Positions 19,964-43,831 of a DNA stretch of 64,000 bases are shown one piece after another. Origin of the DNA: an uncultured Candidatus Saccharibacteria bacterium (GTDB taxonomy: Bacteria; Patescibacteriota; Minisyncoccia; Minisyncoccales; CAYZYK01); the NCBI GenBank assembly GCA_964507665.1, contig CAZDPT010000002.1:29016-93015 (forward strand). Direction: 5' to 3'. Made by a program: the position numbers and the translations under genes. Positions within the stretch are counted from its first letter, which is position 1. Every line of letters begins with the position of its first letter. A model generated the notes under the pieces. That model was not told the origin of the DNA. It saw only the letters and a program-made list of their open reading frames with translations, and ran no database searches.

Positions 19964-20029
19964 TTAATATGATCGTTGAAAGATAACAAGTAAAATCAGT
20001 TACTTGAAATTGCCTCGGATAAAACTTTT

Positions 20030-21530
<1,501 letters not shown>

Positions 21531-21966: not shown

Positions 21967-23187
21967 TTAAATTTTTGTTTGGGTTTTGGTTTGGGTTTTG
22001 GGAGGAGTAACGAAGTAATCTTTTTTAACGTGTTCAATTAATATTTTAGTTAATATAGGGGCAAGGAGAGTGGTGATAACACTTAAAATAATCATAGCGG
22101 TCACTAATTCAGAAGATAGAATTTTCATTTCTTGACCAACAAAGACTACAGCTAAGGTAGTGGTGAGCTGGGGGATACTTGTGGCTGCCACTAGGGCACT
22201 TTGTTTTAAAGTATGATGACGTAAACGAGCAGCAATCCAAGTGCTTCCAAATTTAGTCACTAGAGAACCAAACAGGATGGTTATTGTTAATATCCAAAAC
22301 CCTTTTGTTTCCAAAAAAATATTAATATTTGTTTTCATACCTATAGATACAAAAAATATAGGTATGAAAAATCCATAAGATAAAGCAAATATCTTATTTT
22401 TTAATTCAGGATTGGTTATTACCCCCGAAAGTACTAAACCTGCAAAAAATGCTCCTATCATAGGATGCAATCCAAGCAATTCAAATACAACCACCATTCC
22501 TAATAGAATAACAAAGATGAAACGAAGTTCACGTTCAAAGCCAAACTTCTCCTCTGATATAAATATTTTAGCAAGAAAACGATAAGAACGAAAAATAACC
22601 CAAACAAACAATCCTCCTAACAAAAATATTCCAACAAACAATAAGATAAACCAGGTCAAAGAGAGAGTTGAACCAGGAGATAAATATTGTAAGGCAACAG
22701 CAAGAATTATTAAACTTAAAATATCTTGTAGTATAATGGCTGAAGTGGTTAATTGACCTATTTTAGTTTTTAAAAGTTTTTTTTCTTCTAAAATAGGAAC
22801 AACCACAGCAAAGGAAGAGGACATAAAAATAATTCCTAACAAGATAACCGCGCCAATATTATAACCAAAAAATAGACCAATTAGTGCTCCTATGATGGCG
22901 GGAACAAAACCGCTTATCAAAGCAATTAAAACTGAATCTTTCCAAAATTGTTTAATTCCCGATAATTTAATTTCTAATCCGGCCATGAATAATAAAAATA
23001 TCAATCCCAGAGATGCCAGAAAATTAAAAGTGGCATCGGGAGCAACAAATTTAAAACCAAAAGGGCCGATGATTATTCCTGCTACAATAAGAGCTATTAC
23101 CCAAGGAATTCGAAAACGATGAAGTATTCGGGAAAAAAATAAAGAAACTGATAAGATTAAAAATAGTGGAATTAGTCCTTCTTGCAT
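21967..23187 (-). CDS. cation:proton antiporter (CPA2/Kef-NapA-like)
   Basis: 406 aa with about 12 predicted TM helices. N-terminal pattern resembles Na+/H+ exchanger family proteins. Confidence 0.7.
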   Translation of the reverse strand: MQEGLIPLFLILSVSLFFSRILHRFRIPWVIALIVAGIIIGPFGFKFVAPDATFNFLASLGLIFLLFMAGLEIKLSGIKQFWKDSVLIALISGFVPAIIGALIGLFFGYNIGAVILLGIIFMSSSFAVVVPILEEKKLLKTKIGQLTTSAIILQDILSLIILAVALQYLSPGSTLSLTWFILLFVGIFLLGGLFVWVIFRSYRFLAKIFISEEKFGFERELRFIFVILLGMVVVFELLGLHPMIGAFFAGLVLSGVITNPELKNKIFALSYGFFIPIFFVSIGMKTNINIFLETKGFWILTITILFGSLVTKFGSTWIAARLRHHTLKQSALVAATSIPQLTTTLAVVFVGQEMKILSSELVTAMIILSVITTLLAPILTKILIEHVKKDYFVTPPKTQTKTQTKI

Positions 23188-23429: not shown

Positions 23430-24125
23430 ATGATTATTGGTTCATGGGCTCAAATAACTATTGATGCTTTAAAAGATCTTTGGCGAGGATTTTTAGATTT
23501 TATTCCTGAAGCTATAGGAGCTATTGTAGTTTTTGTTATTGGTTGGTTTATTGCTGCTGGTGTCGGAAAATTAGTTGAGAAGATTTTGTTGAAGTTACAG
23601 TTTAACAAACTTTTTGAGAAAGAAGGATGGAGAGAAGCTCTAGAAAAAGCAGATCTTAAAGTTGATGCCTCAAAATTCGTTGGAGCAATTGTTAAATGGG
23701 TTTTAGTAATTGTTTTCTTACTGGCTGCAGTAGAGATTTTAGGATTAGTACAATTTGCTAATTTCTTACAGGATGTTCTAGCTTACTTGCCTAATGTAAT
23801 TGTTGCTGTTTTGATTTTTGTGGTGACTTTCATTGTAGTAGATATTGTTGAGAAATTGGTGAGAGCATCTGTAGAAAGAATAAAAGTTGGTTACGGAAAT
23901 TTAATAAGTTTGTTTGTTAAATGGGCTATTTGGGTGTTTGCAGTTTTTGCTATTTTACGACAGCTTGTAATTGTTCCCACATTGATTGATACTCTATTTA
24001 AAGCTTTGGTTTATGGAGTGGTGGCTATGTTTGTAATTACAGCTGGGCTTGCTTTCGGACTTGGTGGAAGAGATTTTGCTAAAGAAGTTTTAGAAGAGTT
24101 AAGAAGAAAGGTTAGAAAGCGATAA
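23430..24125 (+). CDS. conserved TM-helix-repeat membrane protein (MscS-N-terminal-like family)
   Basis: Several TM helices with repeated VxxVxxWxIxxVxxL-type segments. Family assignment rests on pattern memory only. Confidence 0.4.
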   Translation: MIIGSWAQITIDALKDLWRGFLDFIPEAIGAIVVFVIGWFIAAGVGKLVEKILLKLQFNKLFEKEGWREALEKADLKVDASKFVGAIVKWVLVIVFLLAAVEILGLVQFANFLQDVLAYLPNVIVAVLIFVVTFIVVDIVEKLVRASVERIKVGYGNLISLFVKWAIWVFAVFAILRQLVIVPTLIDTLFKALVYGVVAMFVITAGLAFGLGGRDFAKEVLEELRRKVRKR

Positions 24126-24413: not shown

Positions 24414-27032
24414 TAGTGGAAAATTAAAAGATAATTAAAATCTGTATCTATTCCGCAGGAATAAATTAATTTAAAGGCAAATGGTGGATGCCTCGGGAGT
24501 AGGAAGCGATGAAGGACGTGGCGTAGCTGCGATAAGCCTCGGGGAGATGCTGAGCAATCTTTGATCCGGGGATATCCGAATGGGATAACCTATTCGCGTG
24601 ATAAACACGAATAACTCTGTCAGACGGCAGAGTAGCGAACCTGGTGAAGTGAAACATCTCAGTAACCAGAGGAAAAGAGAACGAAGTTTATTCTCTTAGT
24701 AGCGGCGAGCGAAAAGGGAAGAGTCCAAACCGAGTACTTTTTGTGCTCGGTGTAGTAAGGAGATAATTTCAGGGATATTTCTGGTGCACAGAAATATCCA
24801 CTGAGGGAGTTTATAACACAAAACTTGGTTAAAAGAAACACCCTGGAAAGGGGTGCCATAGAGGGTGATAGCCCCGTATTTAAAAACCGTTTTGTACTCC
24901 TTGTTATCTTTCTTGAGTACCGTCGGAAATGAAAGCCCGGCGGGAACCACCCCGAACTATCGGGGAAGACTAAATATTCCTACTCACCAATAGCGAACAA
25001 AGTACCGTGAGGGAAAGTTGAAAAGTAGCCCTGTGAGGGCGGTGAAATAGAACCTGAAACCATTTGCTTACAAAGAGTCAGAGCTCCACTTGTGGAGTGA
25101 TGGCGTGCTTTTTGCAGAACGAGCCAACGAGTGTATTTTATCCGCTAGTCTAAGAGGTTCTGCCTCGAAGGCATAGGGAAACCAAGTGTGAAAGCGCATC
25201 AAGCGGAGAGAATACGACCCGAAACCAGGCGATCTTACCATGGCCAGGGTGAACCCACTGTAAAAAGTGGGGGAGGCCCGAACCCGTAAGCCGGGCAATG
25301 CTTTGGGATGAGCTGTGGTAAGGAGTGAAAAGCTAATCGAGCTTGGTAATAGCTGGTTCTCCCCGAAACAGCTTTAGGGCTGACGTCTAGTTATATCTAT
25401 TGGAGGTAGAGCACTGGAAGGATTATCGTGGATTTTTCCAGATTTTCCTACCAAACTCCGAATACCAATAGACTTATCTAGGCAGTCAGACTATGGGGGC
25501 TAAGCTCCATAGTCGAAAGGGAAAGAGCCCAGACCATCATCTAAGGTCCCCAAGATTGAGCTAAGTGTATCTTAAGGAAGTATTTTGCCCCAGACAAACA
25601 GAAGGTTTGCTTAGAGGTAGCTATCCTTTAAAGAGTGTGTAAAAACTCACTGTTCTACTCATCCTTTGGATGAGAAGGGCAAGGTGCGCCGAAGATTTCC
25701 GGGACTCAAGCTCAACACCGAAGATATGGTTCAATATATTTAATATATTGGAGGTAGGGGAGCGTTCTGTTTGCGTTGAAGGTGAACCGGAAGGTTCACT
25801 GGAGCGGACAGAAGTGAGAATGTTGGCATGAGTAACCACAATAGGTGTGAGATTCACCTACACCGAAAACCCAAGGTTTCCTTGGCAATGGCGATCAGCC
25901 AAGGGTTAGGCGGTCCTAAGGTGAACCCGAAAGGGGTAATCGATGGACAGCCGGTTAATATTCCGGCCCTCCATTACTTTTTCAAAGAGGTAACGAAATT
26001 TAGTAGGTAAGGCAGATTATTGGATTTCTGTCCTCAGTCTAAGTTTTTACAAGGACTGAGGGGAAATTTGTCTTCGGACAAATTAACCTTACTGAGCAAA
26101 TTTCCAAGAAAAGCCTCCGCGAGTTAAAAGTAATGGATCCGTACCGCAAACCGACACAGGTGGGTTGGCATAAATGTGCTAAGGTGAACGGGTGAAACCT
26201 CGTTAAGGAACTCGGCAAAAAAGTGGCCGTAACTTCGGGATAAGGCCTACCACCATTTAGGTGGTCGCAGCTAAAGTTCCCCTGGCGACTGTTTATCAAA
26301 AACATAGGTCCCTGCTTAACTCGTAAGAGGATGTATAGGGGCTGAGGCCTGACCAGTGTTGGAACGTTAATGGTGGCGGTCCTTGTTTTACCTTCGGGTG
26401 AAATAACAAGGGCTGACTGCTTGAAGCTCCAATGAACGTCGGCGATAACTATAATCGTCCAAAGGTAGCGTAGTCCCTTGCCGGGTAAGTTCCGGCCTGC
26501 ATGAAAGGCTTAACGGCTGGGGGGCTGTCTCAACGAGGAGCCCGGTGAAAATGCAATACCGGTAAAGATGCCGGTTACCTGCGGCAAGACGGAAAGACCC
26601 CGGAAGCTTTACTGGAGCTAGATATTGGGTTTTGATTTTGAATGCGTAGTGTAGGTGGGAGACTTTGAAGCCAGAATTTCGGTTCTGGTGGAGTCGCCAA
26701 TGGAACACCACCCTTTTGAAATCTTTATTCTAATTTCGTTGTCCAAAGTACAACGGAAGACAGTGTTTAGCGGACAGTTTAAGTGGGGCGCTTGCCTCCC
26801 AAAGAGTAACGGAGGCGTTTATTAAGGTCGGCTAACTCCGGATGGAAATCGGAGTAATAGGACAAAGCCACAAGCCGGCTTTACTGCAAGACGGCTATGT
26901 CACGCAGTTGGGAAACCAGAACTTAGTGAACCGAGCGTAGTTTATAGAACCGCGTGAGATTATCAGATAAAAGTTACCCCGGGGATAACAGGTTGGTAGG
27001 GCCCGAGAGTCCATATCTACGGCCCTGTTCGA

Positions 27033-27104
<72 letters not shown>

Positions 27105-27120
27105 TGGTACGTGAGCTGGG

Positions 27121-28260
27121 TTGAGTAAAACTTGAGCCCAGTTAAAACTGGCTAATAACGGTGAAACCCATTATTTATTGTGGTATAATAAAATAATGGG
27201 CAATACCGTGGGAAGACAATTTTTTACCTTAAAGTTTCAAAGAGAAGTAATTATAGGATGTCTTTTAGGAGATGGAAGATTAGAATGTCGATCAAAAGAA
27301 GGAAGCGCCAGATTAAGAATTCATCACGGATGGAAGCAAAAAGATCTTGTCTTTTGGAAATATAGGGTGCTGAAAAACATAGTTTCTTGTCCTCCAAGAA
27401 GAATAGTTTGTTGGAAGAATCCTAAAAATGGTGAAGATTACCATTCCTGGTATTTTCACACTCGAACACTTCTAGGATTGAGAGAAATTTATAAGATGTT
27501 TTATCCAGACGGAGCAAAGATTTTACCCCAGAATATTCTTGATTTGTTAACACCAGTAAGTTTAGCAGTTTGGCTTATGGATGATGGATGCAATGATAGA
27601 AATTCTCTTGTTCTCAATACTCATAATTTTTCAAGAATCGAGAATAAAAGATTACAAGAAGTTCTTAAAGTGAAATTTAATCTTGATTTTGGGATTAATA
27701 AAGATCGAGATAAATGGAGATTAAGGCTTTATAGCAATGATTTTCAAAAGATAATAGATTTGACAGAGCCATATATTATTCCATCAATAAAGTATAAAAT
27801 TGTCCCCGTAGAGACTGAGTCCGTAAGAAGGACGAGGCAGTAGATAACCTACTGCAATACGCCAGTCCCATTAGATAATTTCAAAATCTATGGGAAAGAT
27901 ATAGTCCATGCTTATAGTAATATAAGAGTAAATATGTCAGACCGTCAAAAAAAGAACTTTAGATATCGAGTTCACACGGCGGCTTCCTGCTGTAAAGCAG
28001 GTTGAAAAACCGACTCATATCGGTGAAGTCCTTGTATCTTAACCTGTCGTGTACTAGGATAATACCGAGGGAAGTCGTAAATATTTTTTTATGGAGAATC
28101 TTCTAAAGGAAAAGAAAAATGTTTATTGACCCTGTAGAGACTTAGTGAAAAATTTTACTAGATTCTTTTCATTTTTGAGAAGGATAATACGTCGGTCCCC
28201 TTGAGATAGATATATATTTCATAGGGTGATGGTATAGTCCATTCCACTGGTAACAGTGGG
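27121..28260 (+). mobile_element. group-I-like intervening sequence in 23S domain V (between GCUGGG(UU) and UUUAGAA, E. coli ~U2584-U2586 region)
   Basis: Exon homology stops at ...gtgagctgggtt and resumes at gggtttagaatgcgtgagacagg. It contains S-element aagatatagtcc and R-like gtagagactgag motifs twice, plus a LAGLIDADG ORF. Confidence 0.8.
27196..27843 (+). CDS. double-motif LAGLIDADG homing endonuclease (intron-encoded)
   Basis: Motif 1 is IIGCLLGDGRL and motif 2 is LAVWLMDDGC. ATG at 27196 is preferred over the upstream TTG. The 3' end overlaps the first ribozyme core. Confidence 0.85.
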   Translation: MGNTVGRQFFTLKFQREVIIGCLLGDGRLECRSKEGSARLRIHHGWKQKDLVFWKYRVLKNIVSCPPRRIVCWKNPKNGEDYHSWYFHTRTLLGLREIYKMFYPDGAKILPQNILDLLTPVSLAVWLMDDGCNDRNSLVLNTHNFSRIENKRLQEVLKVKFNLDFGINKDRDKWRLRLYSNDFQKIIDLTEPYIIPSIKYKIVPVETESVRRTRQ

Positions 28261-28600: not shown

Positions 28601-28714
28601 TTGGTGGCGGCTATACTGGAGTTGTCCCACCTGTTCCCATTTCGAACACAGAAGTGAAATACTCCGAGGCCGATGATAGTAGGTTTTACCTGCGAAAGTA
28701 GGTAGCCGCCACCT
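28601..28714 (+). rRNA. rrf: 5S rRNA
   Basis: ttggtggcggctatactggag...cccacctgttcccatttcgaacacagaagt...gtagccgccacc. Helix I pairs the termini. Confidence 0.88.
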
Positions 28715-41705: not shown

Positions 41706-42509
41706 ATGACAAAAAGAAGAAGAACCCCTCATAAAATAAAAAGAAAAAAAAGCATTTTCAGAAGACGTCTCTTTTGGTTTTTCTTATTATTTTTAATTAT
41801 TATTTTGGTTTTCTCTTATTTCTTATTTTTTTCAGATAAGTTTTATGTTAAAAAAATAAAAGTTACAGGAAACGAAAAAATTGCAACAGAAGATATTAAA
41901 AAAATTGTTTCTGATAAATTAAGTCGTAATTTTTTTGATATAATTAAGACAAGAAGTATATTTTTAATTCCAGAAAAGGAAATAAGGAATAAAATTTTAA
42001 AAGATTATCCTAAAATTGGAAATGTTGAAATAAAAAGAAAGCTTTTTGACACTTTGATTCTGAAAATAGAAGAAAGAAAGCCTATGGCTCTTTTCTGTCA
42101 AGGAAATGAATGTTTTTTGATTGATAAAAATGGAGTAATTTTTGAGTCCTCAAAAACAACTCCCAAAGAGTTAGAAATTAGACTTTTCGAAAAGAGACAA
42201 AATTTATCTTTACCCAGGAAGATTATAACAAAGAAGATTTTAGGATTAATCTTAAAAATTGAAAAGAACCTTAAAGAAAAGTTTGATGTAACGACAAAAG
42301 AAGTATTTACTGACCAAAAAGAGAAATTAAACTTTAAAACAGTTCAAGGGTGGAAGATTTATTTTAATCTAGAGAAAGATATAGACTTACAGATAACTAA
42401 ACTGAATTTATTACTTGAAAAAGAGATTTCTCCAGAAGAGAGAAAGATTTTAAATTACATTGATTTAAGATTTAGTAGGGTTTTTGTAAGCCCCCCTGAA
42501 GTTTTGTGA
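41706..42509 (+). CDS. ftsQ: cell division protein FtsQ/DivIB-like (POTRA)
   Basis: Basic N-terminus, single TM, POTRA-like FYVKKIKVTGNEKI, and IDLRF near the C-terminus. Confidence 0.7.
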   Translation: MTKRRRTPHKIKRKKSIFRRRLFWFFLLFLIIILVFSYFLFFSDKFYVKKIKVTGNEKIATEDIKKIVSDKLSRNFFDIIKTRSIFLIPEKEIRNKILKDYPKIGNVEIKRKLFDTLILKIEERKPMALFCQGNECFLIDKNGVIFESSKTTPKELEIRLFEKRQNLSLPRKIITKKILGLILKIEKNLKEKFDVTTKEVFTDQKEKLNFKTVQGWKIYFNLEKDIDLQITKLNLLLEKEISPEERKILNYIDLRFSRVFVSPPEVL

Positions 42510-42525
42510 ATTATTTGATTAACCC

Positions 42526-42553
42526 TTGACAAGGTTTTTTAAAGAGGTAAAAT
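42526..42553 (+). promoter_or_regulatory. promoter (TTGACA-16-TAAAAT) driving a non-coding or peptide transcript
   Basis: Hexamers at 42526-42531 and 42548-42553. Confidence 0.45.
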
Positions 42554-42559
42554 AAAAGT

Positions 42560-42925
42560 AGTATGCAAAAGATAAACCTAACCAATCTTGTAGTACTTCA
42601 AGTAGTAGCAGATAGTAATCTGCTTGGTTGGGTTTGTTAAGAAAAAAAATAAATAGAAAAAAAGCAAATCTGGCCGAGCAGAGCCAGATTTTTAAGTTTA
42701 AATCTACAAAAGTTCCTTAAAAACTAATTCTGTCCTAGGAGAACAGTCACCCAAACTACAGAAAAAGAACACTATCAGAGAGTAAAGGAGATAGGGCTCT
42801 GTAAACAGCAGAGTATCCGTGGCCATTTCCCATCATAGAAAAGCCGGTCTTTTGGAAAACACCTTCTTCCAGAAGACCCTCCTTTACTCTTAAACAAGGG
42901 GGCCAGACCAGGCCCCCTCTTTTTA
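42560..42925 (+). ncRNA. candidate structured RNA(s) of unknown class, ending at a GC-rich terminator
   Basis: 5' module: a long hairpin (aaacctaaccaa/ttggttgggttt) and the hairpin aaatctggc/gccagattt. 3' module: a perfect 12-bp closing helix 42779-42790/42879-42890 enclosing two hairpins. Terminator is gggggcc-agacca-ggccccc-tcttttt (42898-42924). Confidence 0.45.
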
Positions 42926-42931
42926 GTTGAC

Positions 42932-43011
42932 TTGACAAGAATTTTTTAATAAATATAATTAAATGAGGGTGAATTATCACTCTTGACCTCAGACTGCTAA
43001 TTTTATATAAT
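42932..43011 (+). promoter_or_regulatory. tandem hrcA operon promoters (TTGACA-16-TATAAT and TTGACC-17-TATAAT)
   Basis: P1 hexamers at 42932-37 and 42954-59. P2 hexamers at 42983-88 and 43006-11. Confidence 0.5.
42974..43000 (+). promoter_or_regulatory. CIRCE operator (HrcA binding site)
   Basis: TTATCACTC-N9-GACTGCTAA against the consensus TTAGCACTC-N9-GAGTGCTAA, one mismatch per arm. It overlaps the P2 -35 and spacer. Confidence 0.7.
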
Positions 43012-43078: not shown

Positions 43079-43831
43079 ATGAAGTTAACTAATCGTCAAC
43101 GAAAAATAATAAATGCAGTAGTTAAAGAATATGTTAAATCAGCTCATCCAGTAAGCTCTAAGCTGCTTAAAAAAAAGTATAAGTTTGAAGTTTCACCAGC
43201 AACCCTTAGAAATGAGATGAAAGAGTTAACTGATAAAGGTTATTTGTTCCAGCCACATACTTCTGCAGGAAGAGTTCCTGCTGATAAAAGTTATCGCTTT
43301 TTTGTAAATCATTTTTTGGAAAAAGAGTTCCAGAATAAAAAAAGAGAACAACCCAAAAAGAAAGAAGATGTTTTTGAAATGTCCCAGGAATTTGAGAAAG
43401 AAGTTAAAGATATTCATAAATTTGTTCGTACTCTTACTAAAAAATTAGCTCATTTTTCTTCAAGTTTAGCGATCTGTTATCTGCTAGAGGAAGAAATTAT
43501 GTTAAGAGAGGGCTGGAATGAGATTTTCAAAGAGCCAGAATTTAAAAATTCTGATTTTTCCTCCCAGTTTATAGATATGGTAGATATTTTAGAGAAAAGT
43601 TTTGAAGATTTACCCTTCGAAAATGGAAGGTATGACAGAATTAAAATCTATATTGGAAAAGAGGTTCCTTTCTCTAAAAAATCAGAGTTTAGTGTGATTG
43701 TTTCTAGGTGTAGTTTCTCCAAGATTCAAGAAGGTTTTTTAACCCTTTTGGGTCCAAAGAGAATGGCTTATCCTAAAAATATTAGTTTAATGAATTCAGT
43801 GATAAAACTATTAGAAGAAAAAACAGAGTAG
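43079..43831 (+). CDS. hrcA: heat-inducible transcription repressor HrcA (short, 250 aa)
   Basis: LTNRQRKIINAVVKEYVKSAHPVSSKLL wHTH N-terminus, SPATLRNEM and GYL.QPHTSAGRVP motifs. Confidence 0.85.
   Translation: MKLTNRQRKIINAVVKEYVKSAHPVSSKLLKKKYKFEVSPATLRNEMKELTDKGYLFQPHTSAGRVPADKSYRFFVNHFLEKEFQNKKREQPKKKEDVFEMSQEFEKEVKDIHKFVRTLTKKLAHFSSSLAICYLLEEEIMLREGWNEIFKEPEFKNSDFSSQFIDMVDILEKSFEDLPFENGRYDRIKIYIGKEVPFSKKSEFSVIVSRCSFSKIQEGFLTLLGPKRMAYPKNISLMNSVIKLLEEKTE

Follow-up and report, generated by a model that had tools for sequence, protein, structure and literature searches.

Introduction

The closest described counterparts of the element reported here are the leader-peptide attenuators of the enterobacterial leu, ilvGMEDA/ilvBN and trp operons (LeuL, IlvL and TrpL). 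In these systems a short open reading frame (ORF) rich in the sensed codons lies over four RNA segments that can pair as the alternative helices 1:2, 2:3 and 3:4, an intrinsic terminator is among the alternatives, and the stop codon is placed so that a ribosome finishing the leader peptide blocks region 2. We find each of these features between the genes ftsQ and hrcA in a 64,000-nucleotide (nt) stretch of DNA from an uncultured Candidatus Saccharibacteria bacterium (contig CAZDPT010000002.1), hereafter the window. Positions 42526-42925 of the window probably form a single sigma-70-driven transcription unit on the + strand, the first ~135 nt of which would act as a ribosome-dependent leader-peptide attenuator of the trp/leu/ilv type. 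The likeness to leu extends to a copy of the element elsewhere (locus L102), where a leader with a run of six leucines (LLLLLL) precedes a leuA-like gene with an HMGL/HCS_D2 match. Unlike the enterobacterial attenuators, the element matches no leader family in Rfam at E-values up to 10, its leader ORF is near-leaderless and lacks a Shine-Dalgarno sequence, its host belongs to the Patescibacteria, and it precedes not a biosynthetic operon but a non-coding RNA, tRNA-Val genes or a protein of 55-85 amino acids (aa), mostly beside clpB, hrcA or grpE.

Other described systems share parts of this arrangement. In mycobacteria, leaderless Cys-rich upstream ORFs have been proposed to act as attenuators through the progress of the ribosome (PMC4633059). 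The element resembles these in having a leaderless small ORF that is enriched in one kind of codon and lies upstream of related genes, and differs from them in phylum and in the amino acid concerned; for the present element a terminator/antiterminator pair is supported by covariation. The Bacillus subtilis bmrB-bmrCD leader (PMC4191407) and the msrD leader (PMC10314930) are reported to be antibiotic-sensing leader-peptide switches between terminator and antiterminator that, like the present one, control stress-related cargo outside biosynthesis. Sinorhizobium meliloti trpL (PMC6614838, PMC7298713) likewise illustrates that the products of an attenuator, there the RNA rnTrpL and the peptide peTrpL, may themselves be functional. 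The trpL attenuator has a biosynthetic gene downstream and its trans-acting RNA is reported to be the terminated attenuator transcript, whereas the unit in the window seems to have no products other than RNAs and a leader peptide, and its candidate functional RNA would appear only upon read-through. Our literature searches returned no description of the element and no report of leader-peptide attenuation in Patescibacteria.

Results

Alternative RNA pairings in the leader

The unit begins at a sigma-70-type promoter that agrees with 11 of 12 consensus positions (TTGACA 42526-42531, a 16-nt spacer, TAAAAT 42548-42553) and contains two structured modules, module A (42526-42696) and module B with its terminator (42779-42924), all on the + strand. 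An earlier note on this DNA, made by eye, had listed a promoter, hairpins, a 12-base-pair (bp) helix and a terminator, every one of which lies where it was placed, and the view that they make up a promoter-to-terminator unit is supported, the unit lying on the + strand. Module A was there regarded simply as a non-coding RNA that fitted no class, composed of a long hairpin, an A-rich linker and a second hairpin. These parts correspond instead to helix 1:2, the spacer and helix 3:4 of an attenuator, and the second hairpin, previously given no other partner, competes with an overlooked 2:3 pairing of 18-20 bp that makes it a conditional terminator.

In the window, the first hairpin joins AAACCTAACCAA (42574-42585) to TTGGTTGGGTTT (42624-42635). 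Region 1, defined from the minimum free energy (MFE) structure as 42571-42584 and overlapping codons 3-8 of the leader ORF, is the 5' arm of the anti-antiterminator 1:2 and pairs with 42625-42638, the 3' part of region 2 (42619-42638). Region 2 can instead pair along its whole length with region 3 (42663-42682), producing a 20-bp antiterminator. Region 3 takes in 3 nt upstream of the terminator and then its 5' arm (42666-42674) and loop (42675-42682), so that the second hairpin, AAATCTGGC (42666-42674) with GCCAGATTT (42683-42691) followed by a T-run, shares a strand with the antiterminator. Region 4 is the remaining arm, GCCAGATTT, together with the T-run (42683-42696). The stop codon of the ORF (42638-42640) sits at the 3' end of region 2, and an A-rich unstructured spacer (42639-42662) with many stop codons in every frame follows; this spacer is present in all copies of the module and varies in length.

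The evidence for these alternatives comes from an alignment of 32 module-A copies (A3), the recovery of which is described below. In A3, GCUUGG immediately 5' of region 2 complements CCAAGC in the loop of the second hairpin, and UUCAUUG immediately 3' of region 2 complements CAAUGAA directly upstream of this hairpin. Region 2 thus has a choice of two partners, region 1 over 13 bp and region 3 over 18 bp. Helix 1:2 is paired in 90.3% of cases (90% of cells over the region 1 columns, 45-57) and helices 1:2 and 3:4 jointly in 90.5%, with double changes in six pairs, every one of them in 1:2. The 18 pairs of helix 2:3 are formed in 94.2% of cases, and eight of them carry double changes, in 34 cells, a level matched by none of 500 shuffles, though such counts do not amount to probabilities because the aligned sequences are related. 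Sliding the partner by one to three columns reduces 2:3 pairing to 22-48%. Individual compensations are evident in L101 (UU to CC with AA to GG), L102 (C/G), L181 (U/A) and also L113, the terminator loop CAAGC covaries with GCUUG 5' of region 2, and column 135, within region 2, covaries with each of the two columns it can pair with (48 and 183). Both modules conserve G.U pairs, which on the opposite strand would be C.A mismatches, and this places the RNA on the + strand.

Folding calculations agree with the comparative data. The free leader of the window folds as 1:2 plus terminator (-39.4 kcal/mol). When 42563-42612 is masked, as by a stalled ribosome, the MFE structure becomes the 20-bp antiterminator (-26.2 kcal/mol) whether or not region 4 is present, and masking of 42623-42652, which a ribosome at the stop codon would cover, allows the terminator to form. 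Considered on their own, 17 evaluated 2:3 pairs of the window yield -20.8 kcal/mol versus -11.8 kcal/mol for 3:4. Among the 32 copies of the family, 30 fold into the antiterminator when region 1 is masked and all 32 into the terminator when region 2 is masked, and the free RNA adopts 1:2 plus terminator in 19.

The interval as a whole (42558-42925) folds at -121 kcal/mol compared with -76.3 +/- 5.7 for dinucleotide shuffles (z = -7.85), and its GC content reaches 0.45 against a surrounding ~0.28-0.30. The listing of its reading frames contains no protein ORF of convincing size spanning 42526-42925, and a 74-aa ORF on the - strand (42756-42980) is a spurious call. By eye, the interval had not been matched to tmRNA, RNase P, SRP, 6S or common riboswitch cores, and covariance models agree. 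At gathering scores Rfam, which covers leader, riboswitch, T-box, tmRNA, RNase P, SRP and 6S families, gives no match in it; at E-values up to 10 only chance-level matches appear, headed by rnk_pseudo on the wrong strand (27.8 bits; gathering score 55); and ARAGORN detects neither a tRNA nor a tmRNA within it.

The leader ORF is selected as codons

The leader ORF, MQKINLTNLVVLQVVADSNLLGWVC, runs for 25 codons and a stop (ATG 42563 to TAA 42640) and contains 5 Leu, 5 Val and 1 Ile. It had been flagged earlier as a possible leaderless ORF and is very likely real. By set ORF criteria a homologous ATG-started ORF, covering region 1 and ending near region 2, is recovered in 32 of the 37 copies of module A, and in two of the other five the ORF begins at the same place but ends sooner, 7 nt ahead of region 2 in L191 and at an internal TAG in L133. 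Among the recovered ORFs that cover region 1, the stop falls 3 to 26 nt past the start of region 2.

As judged from the comparison of copies, the leader ORF is under codon-level selection. Region 1 is read as Asn-Leu-Thr/Ile. In the loop beyond it, codons 9-17 display a three-base rhythm, with a mean column entropy of 0.84 at codon position 2 versus 1.52 and 1.59 at the first and third positions. A T occupies position 2 in almost every case, resulting in NUN codons (Leu, Ile, Val, Phe or Met), and outside this position the loop sequence is not conserved. Leucine, valine and isoleucine together make up 38-58% of the leader peptides. In the hrcA-linked clade, L085 and L174 both encode VVVLVVV using different codons (GTA GTA GTA CTC GTA GTA GTA versus GTT GTC GTG CTT GTC GTG GTA). 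The 3' arm behaves otherwise: its nucleotides are conserved, yet the frame in which it is read varies from copy to copy (RLVRFIE, LG-stop, LGWVC), and it is therefore constrained as RNA rather than as protein.

In the window 9 nt separate the end of the -10 element from the ATG and no Shine-Dalgarno sequence is present, such that initiation must be leaderless or nearly so. With the start of transcription judged from the position of the promoter, the 5' untranslated region would be about 2-3 nt. The clpB genes of L137, L139, L141 and L191 also seem leaderless (TAAAAT, 7-8 nt, ATG); there the start directly follows a CTTGATTTTTTT element that overlaps the tail of the preceding terminator.

Copies of module A and their distribution

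Two contigs syntenic with the window have a second hairpin identical to that of the window, and for this reason the terminator pattern AATCTGGCC-N4-10-GCCAGATTTTT was used to scan a metagenome collection, which returned 119 stretches. The complete module-A architecture was found in 37 distinct copies, counting those among the scanned stretches, the window and the two syntenic contigs; all but the window's own lie on metagenomic contigs or contigs of metagenome-assembled genomes, and the rest of the stretches are unrelated terminators. This sample is biased by a search pattern that fixed the 3:4 stem.

At the hrcA locus itself, L001 (HrcA 71% identical to that of the window) carries a promoter, first hairpin, linker and second hairpin ~85% identical to those of the window, with a small protein gene in place of module B, and L085 (HrcA 56% identical) carries both modules; other relatives have a short ftsQ-hrcA spacer without the element. 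An nhmmer search of 83 hrcA loci with the two modules of the window retrieved only L001 and L002, in each case with module A only. The earlier note had proposed looking for homologues and covariation, and with the metagenomic copies included, both modules recur on other contigs with compensatory base changes.

The promoter of the window is kept in L001, L085 and L174. In 17 of the 37 copies (e.g., L167, L126, L195 and L097), TTGACA/TAAAAT is replaced by the motif TGTAAY-N16-CGTC, ~10-15 nt ahead of the leader ATG, which we take to resemble the stress promoters of extracytoplasmic function (ECF) sigma factors, and a further 14 copies have a sigma-70-type promoter. A greA-linked subgroup (L142, L147, L192, L196, L200) possesses switch regions 2-4 and no obvious region 1, and its upstream ORF is different and not rich in Leu or Val (e.g., MENVNTLLQTICNPFQKAISYDSG); it may be a differently triggered relative of the switch.

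In most copies a box, (T)AGTTCTTTAACA or TTTAGCAC, occurs just past the T-run of the attenuator whatever the cargo; the copy in the window, read by eye, is AGTTCCTTAAAAAC (42711-42724). We found no consistent -10 partner, promoter or pairing partner for the box, and, taken as CIRCE, it would be no more than a half-site.

Cargo of the switch

In some other loci the genes behind module A would fit amino-acid or tRNA sensing. Besides the leuA-like gene of L102, stand-alone LeuA_dimer proteins are encoded directly downstream in L129 and L166, tRNA-Val genes lie directly downstream in five loci (L137, L139, L141, L164 and L191), and in L097 an 89-aa protein is followed, as the next large ORF ~0.9 kb on, by prephenate dehydratase. 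The commonest cargo is a predicted helical protein of 55-85 aa, behind which DAHP synthase is the next large ORF in L092. Counting the first large gene downstream, ClpB occurs in 11 loci, HrcA in seven (the window included) and GrpE in two.

The 55-85 aa protein lies between modules A and B in most genomes (L001 5579-5836, L099, L113, L176, L195, L202 and others). This coiled-coil-like protein has the consensus ...EAI..KL....P..KR..L..RL..I..RLIP...., and the family has no Pfam match. A hidden Markov model built from its alignment (A5) detected no trace of the gene, even decayed, in 42690-42930 or in the whole window.

A U at tRNA position 33 is near-universal; in the tRNA-Val(AAC) genes behind module A in L141 (6758-6833), L164 (634-709) and L191 (8470-8545) this position is A or G, with anticodon loops CAAACAU and CGAACAU. 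A tRNA in L105 (6858-6932) has a 6-nt anticodon loop and receives no assignment from ARAGORN.

Module B

In the window, module B has a core in which a 12-bp closing helix (42779-42790 with 42879-42890) surrounds three hairpins. The first (42797-42813) has a CTCTG/CAGAG stem and a conserved UAAACAG loop; the second (42821-42845) has the loop CCAUCAUA and is conserved as a hairpin with a pyrimidine and a purine arm; and the third (42846-42878), GGTCTTTTGGAA/TTCCAGAAGACC with one G.U pair, is specific to the window. The loops of the module include UAAACAG and CCCAUCAUA. A strong intrinsic terminator, GGGGGCC-AGACCA-GGCCCCC (stem 42898-42917; eight pairs, seven of them G-C) followed by TCTTTTT, ends the unit at 42924. 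Module B is a real conserved RNA, though the 12-bp closing helix described in the earlier note and the third hairpin occur only in the genome of the window; the conserved part is the GUAAACAGC hairpin and the one adjoining it. The closing helix pairs a former Shine-Dalgarno-like AAGGAG with CTCCTT.

Elsewhere, module B occurs only downstream of module A in the DNA examined, mostly behind the 55-85 aa gene, and ClpB, hrcA or grpE usually comes next. The motif GTAAACAGC was found 12 times downstream of module A versus four unrelated matches in the 1.27 Mb examined. In the main family this motif caps a long terminator hairpin, upstream of which is a 13-bp hairpin, often with the loop CACCCAUR, and an alignment of 10 sequences (A4) contains compensatory changes in 16 of 25 pairs. 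The subfamily of the window (the window, L085, two copies in L174, and L176) has a YUCUG-UAAACAG-CAGAR hairpin followed by a second hairpin, pyrimidine in its 5' arm and purine in its 3' arm, which shows compensatory changes. A covariance model of the main family (R2) had no match outside contigs with module A, and also missed the diverged module B of the window. Module B is therefore a genuine RNA family, located at the end of units under attenuator control, and our best guess is that it is a regulated small RNA (sRNA) or a 3' domain connected with the heat-shock genes nearby.

Two further ideas were examined. Mimicry of the 23S GTPase-associated centre (GCGUAAUAGC, CCAUCAU) by module B was rejected, since the window's own 23S rRNA has no matching arrangement, and pairing of the module B loops with the leader start region, examined by eye, was not consistent among copies.

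Genomic surroundings

The gap between ftsQ (41706-42509, with POTRA_1 and FtsQ_DivIB_C domains) and hrcA (43079-43831) is 569 nt, and grpE, hsp20 and dnaK are found past hrcA. Two sigma-70-like promoters precede hrcA, a perfect TTGACA-16-TATAAT (42932-42959) and TTGACC-17-TATAAT (42983-43011), and a CIRCE-like inverted repeat, TTATCACTC-N9-GACTGCTAA (42974-43000), overlaps the -35 element of the second. The HrcA protein is short (250 aa). The window genome is low in GC, and its nearest named HrcA relatives carry the labels Patescibacteria group, Paceibacterota or Nealsonbacteria. Samples SRR7048218 and SRR7048220 contain close relatives of the lineage.

The rRNA genes of the window are interrupted by protein-coding genes. 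The 16S gene (20028-21529) is followed by tRNA-Ile/Ala, a Na+/H+ exchanger gene (21967-23187, - strand), a gene for a mechanosensitive-channel-like protein (23430-24125) and the 23S gene (24460-27181), the match to which is just 2722 nt with an insertion near 24780-24812. A LAGLIDADG_2 endonuclease ORF (27178-27843; Pfam E = 1.7e-45) begins where the 23S match ends, ahead of the 5S gene (28603-28714).

Discussion

Our findings point to a ribosome-coupled switch at the head of the ftsQ-hrcA spacer. In the proposed mechanism, RNA polymerase would start 2-3 nt ahead of the AUG and a ribosome would translate the 25-codon, Leu/Val-rich leader. If the leader is not translated, helix 1:2 (42571-42584 with 42625-42638) would form, leaving the 3:4 terminator free to fold and transcription to stop near 42696. 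A ribosome that reaches the stop codon (42638-42640) would cover region 2, and the 3:4 terminator would again form. In the third case the ribosome would stall on the Leu/Val codons just past region 1, most likely owing to scarce charged tRNA-Val or tRNA-Leu, and mask region 1; region 2 would then trap region 3 over 20 bp, no terminator would form and the polymerase would continue. Read-through is predicted to yield a ~230-nt structured non-coding RNA containing module B and ending at the terminator at 42898-42924, while hrcA would be transcribed from its own promoters, which overlap the CIRCE-like repeat.

Several observations weigh against this interpretation. The 3:4 stem is invariant and shows no independent covariation, in part because it was built into the search pattern; the stem is also common to the three copies located through synteny, and its invariance fits a situation in which one strand with two partners freezes all four segments. 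In eight of the 32 copies the free-RNA MFE structure is already the antiterminator, and the proposed mechanism needs near-leaderless initiation. The cargo in the window is the non-coding module B followed by a separately promoted hrcA, with no amino-acid gene and with chaperone genes nearest. Finally, the element is patchy among relatives, as a covariance model of module A (R1) detected no copy at about 50-55 other Patescibacteria hrcA loci.

As the cargo in the window is non-coding and sits beside chaperone genes, the signal may be general translation stress rather than the supply of Val or Leu. The main alternative, which we regard as rather unlikely, is that the same switch responds to general translation trouble, such as ribosome-targeting antibiotics, heat or slow elongation, and drives a stress unit beside the chaperone genes, much as the antibiotic-sensing bmrB and msrD leaders do. 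The counts of ClpB, HrcA and GrpE as first large genes accord with this possibility, as do the lack of an amino-acid gene in the window's cargo and the presumably ECF-like motif upstream of 17 of the 37 copies. Leaders of that type require the drug to arrest the ribosome at specific peptide motifs; unlike them, module A conserves only the NUN codon class and the amino-acid composition, and it is this class, not a fixed arrest motif, that is selected. The composition of the leader also follows the cargo, with LLLLLL ahead of the leuA-like gene, runs of Val in other copies and tRNA-Val genes as cargo, and the chaperone genes have their own promoters behind a strong terminator. Drug-sensing attenuators do offer a precedent for a switch of this kind (PMC4191407, PMC10314930).

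With its UCUG/CAGA stem, the invariant 7-nt loop UAAACAG of module B is similar to the anticodon arm of the tRNA-Val(AAC) that occupies the same slot elsewhere (UCUGG-CAAACAU-CCAGA in L141). A bolder proposal, to which we assign a low probability, is that the attenuator gauges Val/Leu decoding capacity, that its cargo acts on translation or proteostasis, and that module B is a regulated mimic of a tRNA anticodon arm or an sRNA linking translation stress to hrcA-grpE-dnaK and clpB. Were this so, the tRNA-Val loci would represent leader-peptide feedback control of a tRNA gene.

It is very unlikely, in our view, that the interval encodes one or two stand-alone untranslated sRNAs, the first (42560-42697) ending at an ordinary terminator, with the ORF an accident. 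Such sRNAs would account for the strong folding, and the hairpin with its U-run at 42666-42696 is competent as a terminator. They would not account for the three-base periodicity of the unpaired loop with T at codon position 2, for the same peptide core being written in different codons in L085 and L174, or for an ATG kept at a fixed place, and covariation of the terminator loop and flanks with region 2 is needless for an ordinary terminator. Since terminated attenuator RNAs act in trans elsewhere, as rnTrpL is reported to do (PMC6614838), the short transcript may be an sRNA as well as a product of attenuation.

Equally doubtful is the idea that the ORF encodes a functional hydrophobic micro-protein, either a membrane peptide or a type I toxin, and that the RNA structure controls only its translation or stability. 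The peptides do resemble a single hydrophobic helix, with a basic tail in the main family (e.g., MGKLMNLIVVLLLIVVLKQRLVRFIE), and a precedent for a trans-acting leader peptide is reported in peTrpL (PMC7298713). The shifting frame of the C-terminal part over conserved nucleotides argues against such a product, and both the terminator/antiterminator pairing and the conserved downstream cargo would be left unexplained. The window contains an antisense promoter-like site (42640-42612, - strand), which is not kept in L001. With the peptide hydrophobic but neither its C-terminal frame nor this site conserved, a type I toxin-antitoxin system was rejected.

Antitermination by a trans-acting factor (a TRAP-, PyrR- or LicT-like protein, uncharged tRNA as in a T-box, or a small ligand) or by temperature is hardly credible: the GUAGUAGUA repeats in the loop of the window clade recall the (G/U)AG repeats of TRAP targets and the A-U-rich 1:2 helix could melt with heat, but the repeats are confined to some copies of that clade and absent from the main family, TRAP-type attenuation is rejected because L174 keeps VVVLVVV through synonymous codons that remove them, no T-box or riboswitch model matches at E-values up to 10, and the loop sequence is unconserved apart from codon position 2.

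In summary, the mechanism of the leader-peptide attenuator proposed here is a known one, of the leu/ilv/trp kind, and the sequence family is undescribed. The unusual aspects are a leader ORF that is itself leaderless, an antiterminator of great length that draws in the terminator loop, and a cargo of non-coding RNA, tRNA-Val or a tiny protein that is nearly always found beside heat-shock genes. The RNA logic is uncommonly transparent, in that a single strand covaries with each of two partners. Two RNA families absent from Rfam are thereby defined and a long, seemingly 'empty' intergenic region is explained. The genomes of the candidate phyla radiation are tiny and have few recognisable regulators, and a classic ribosome-coupled switch probably operates there in leaderless form, in a position by the chaperone genes that suggests a testable connection of the state of translation with the heat-shock genes of these bacteria.

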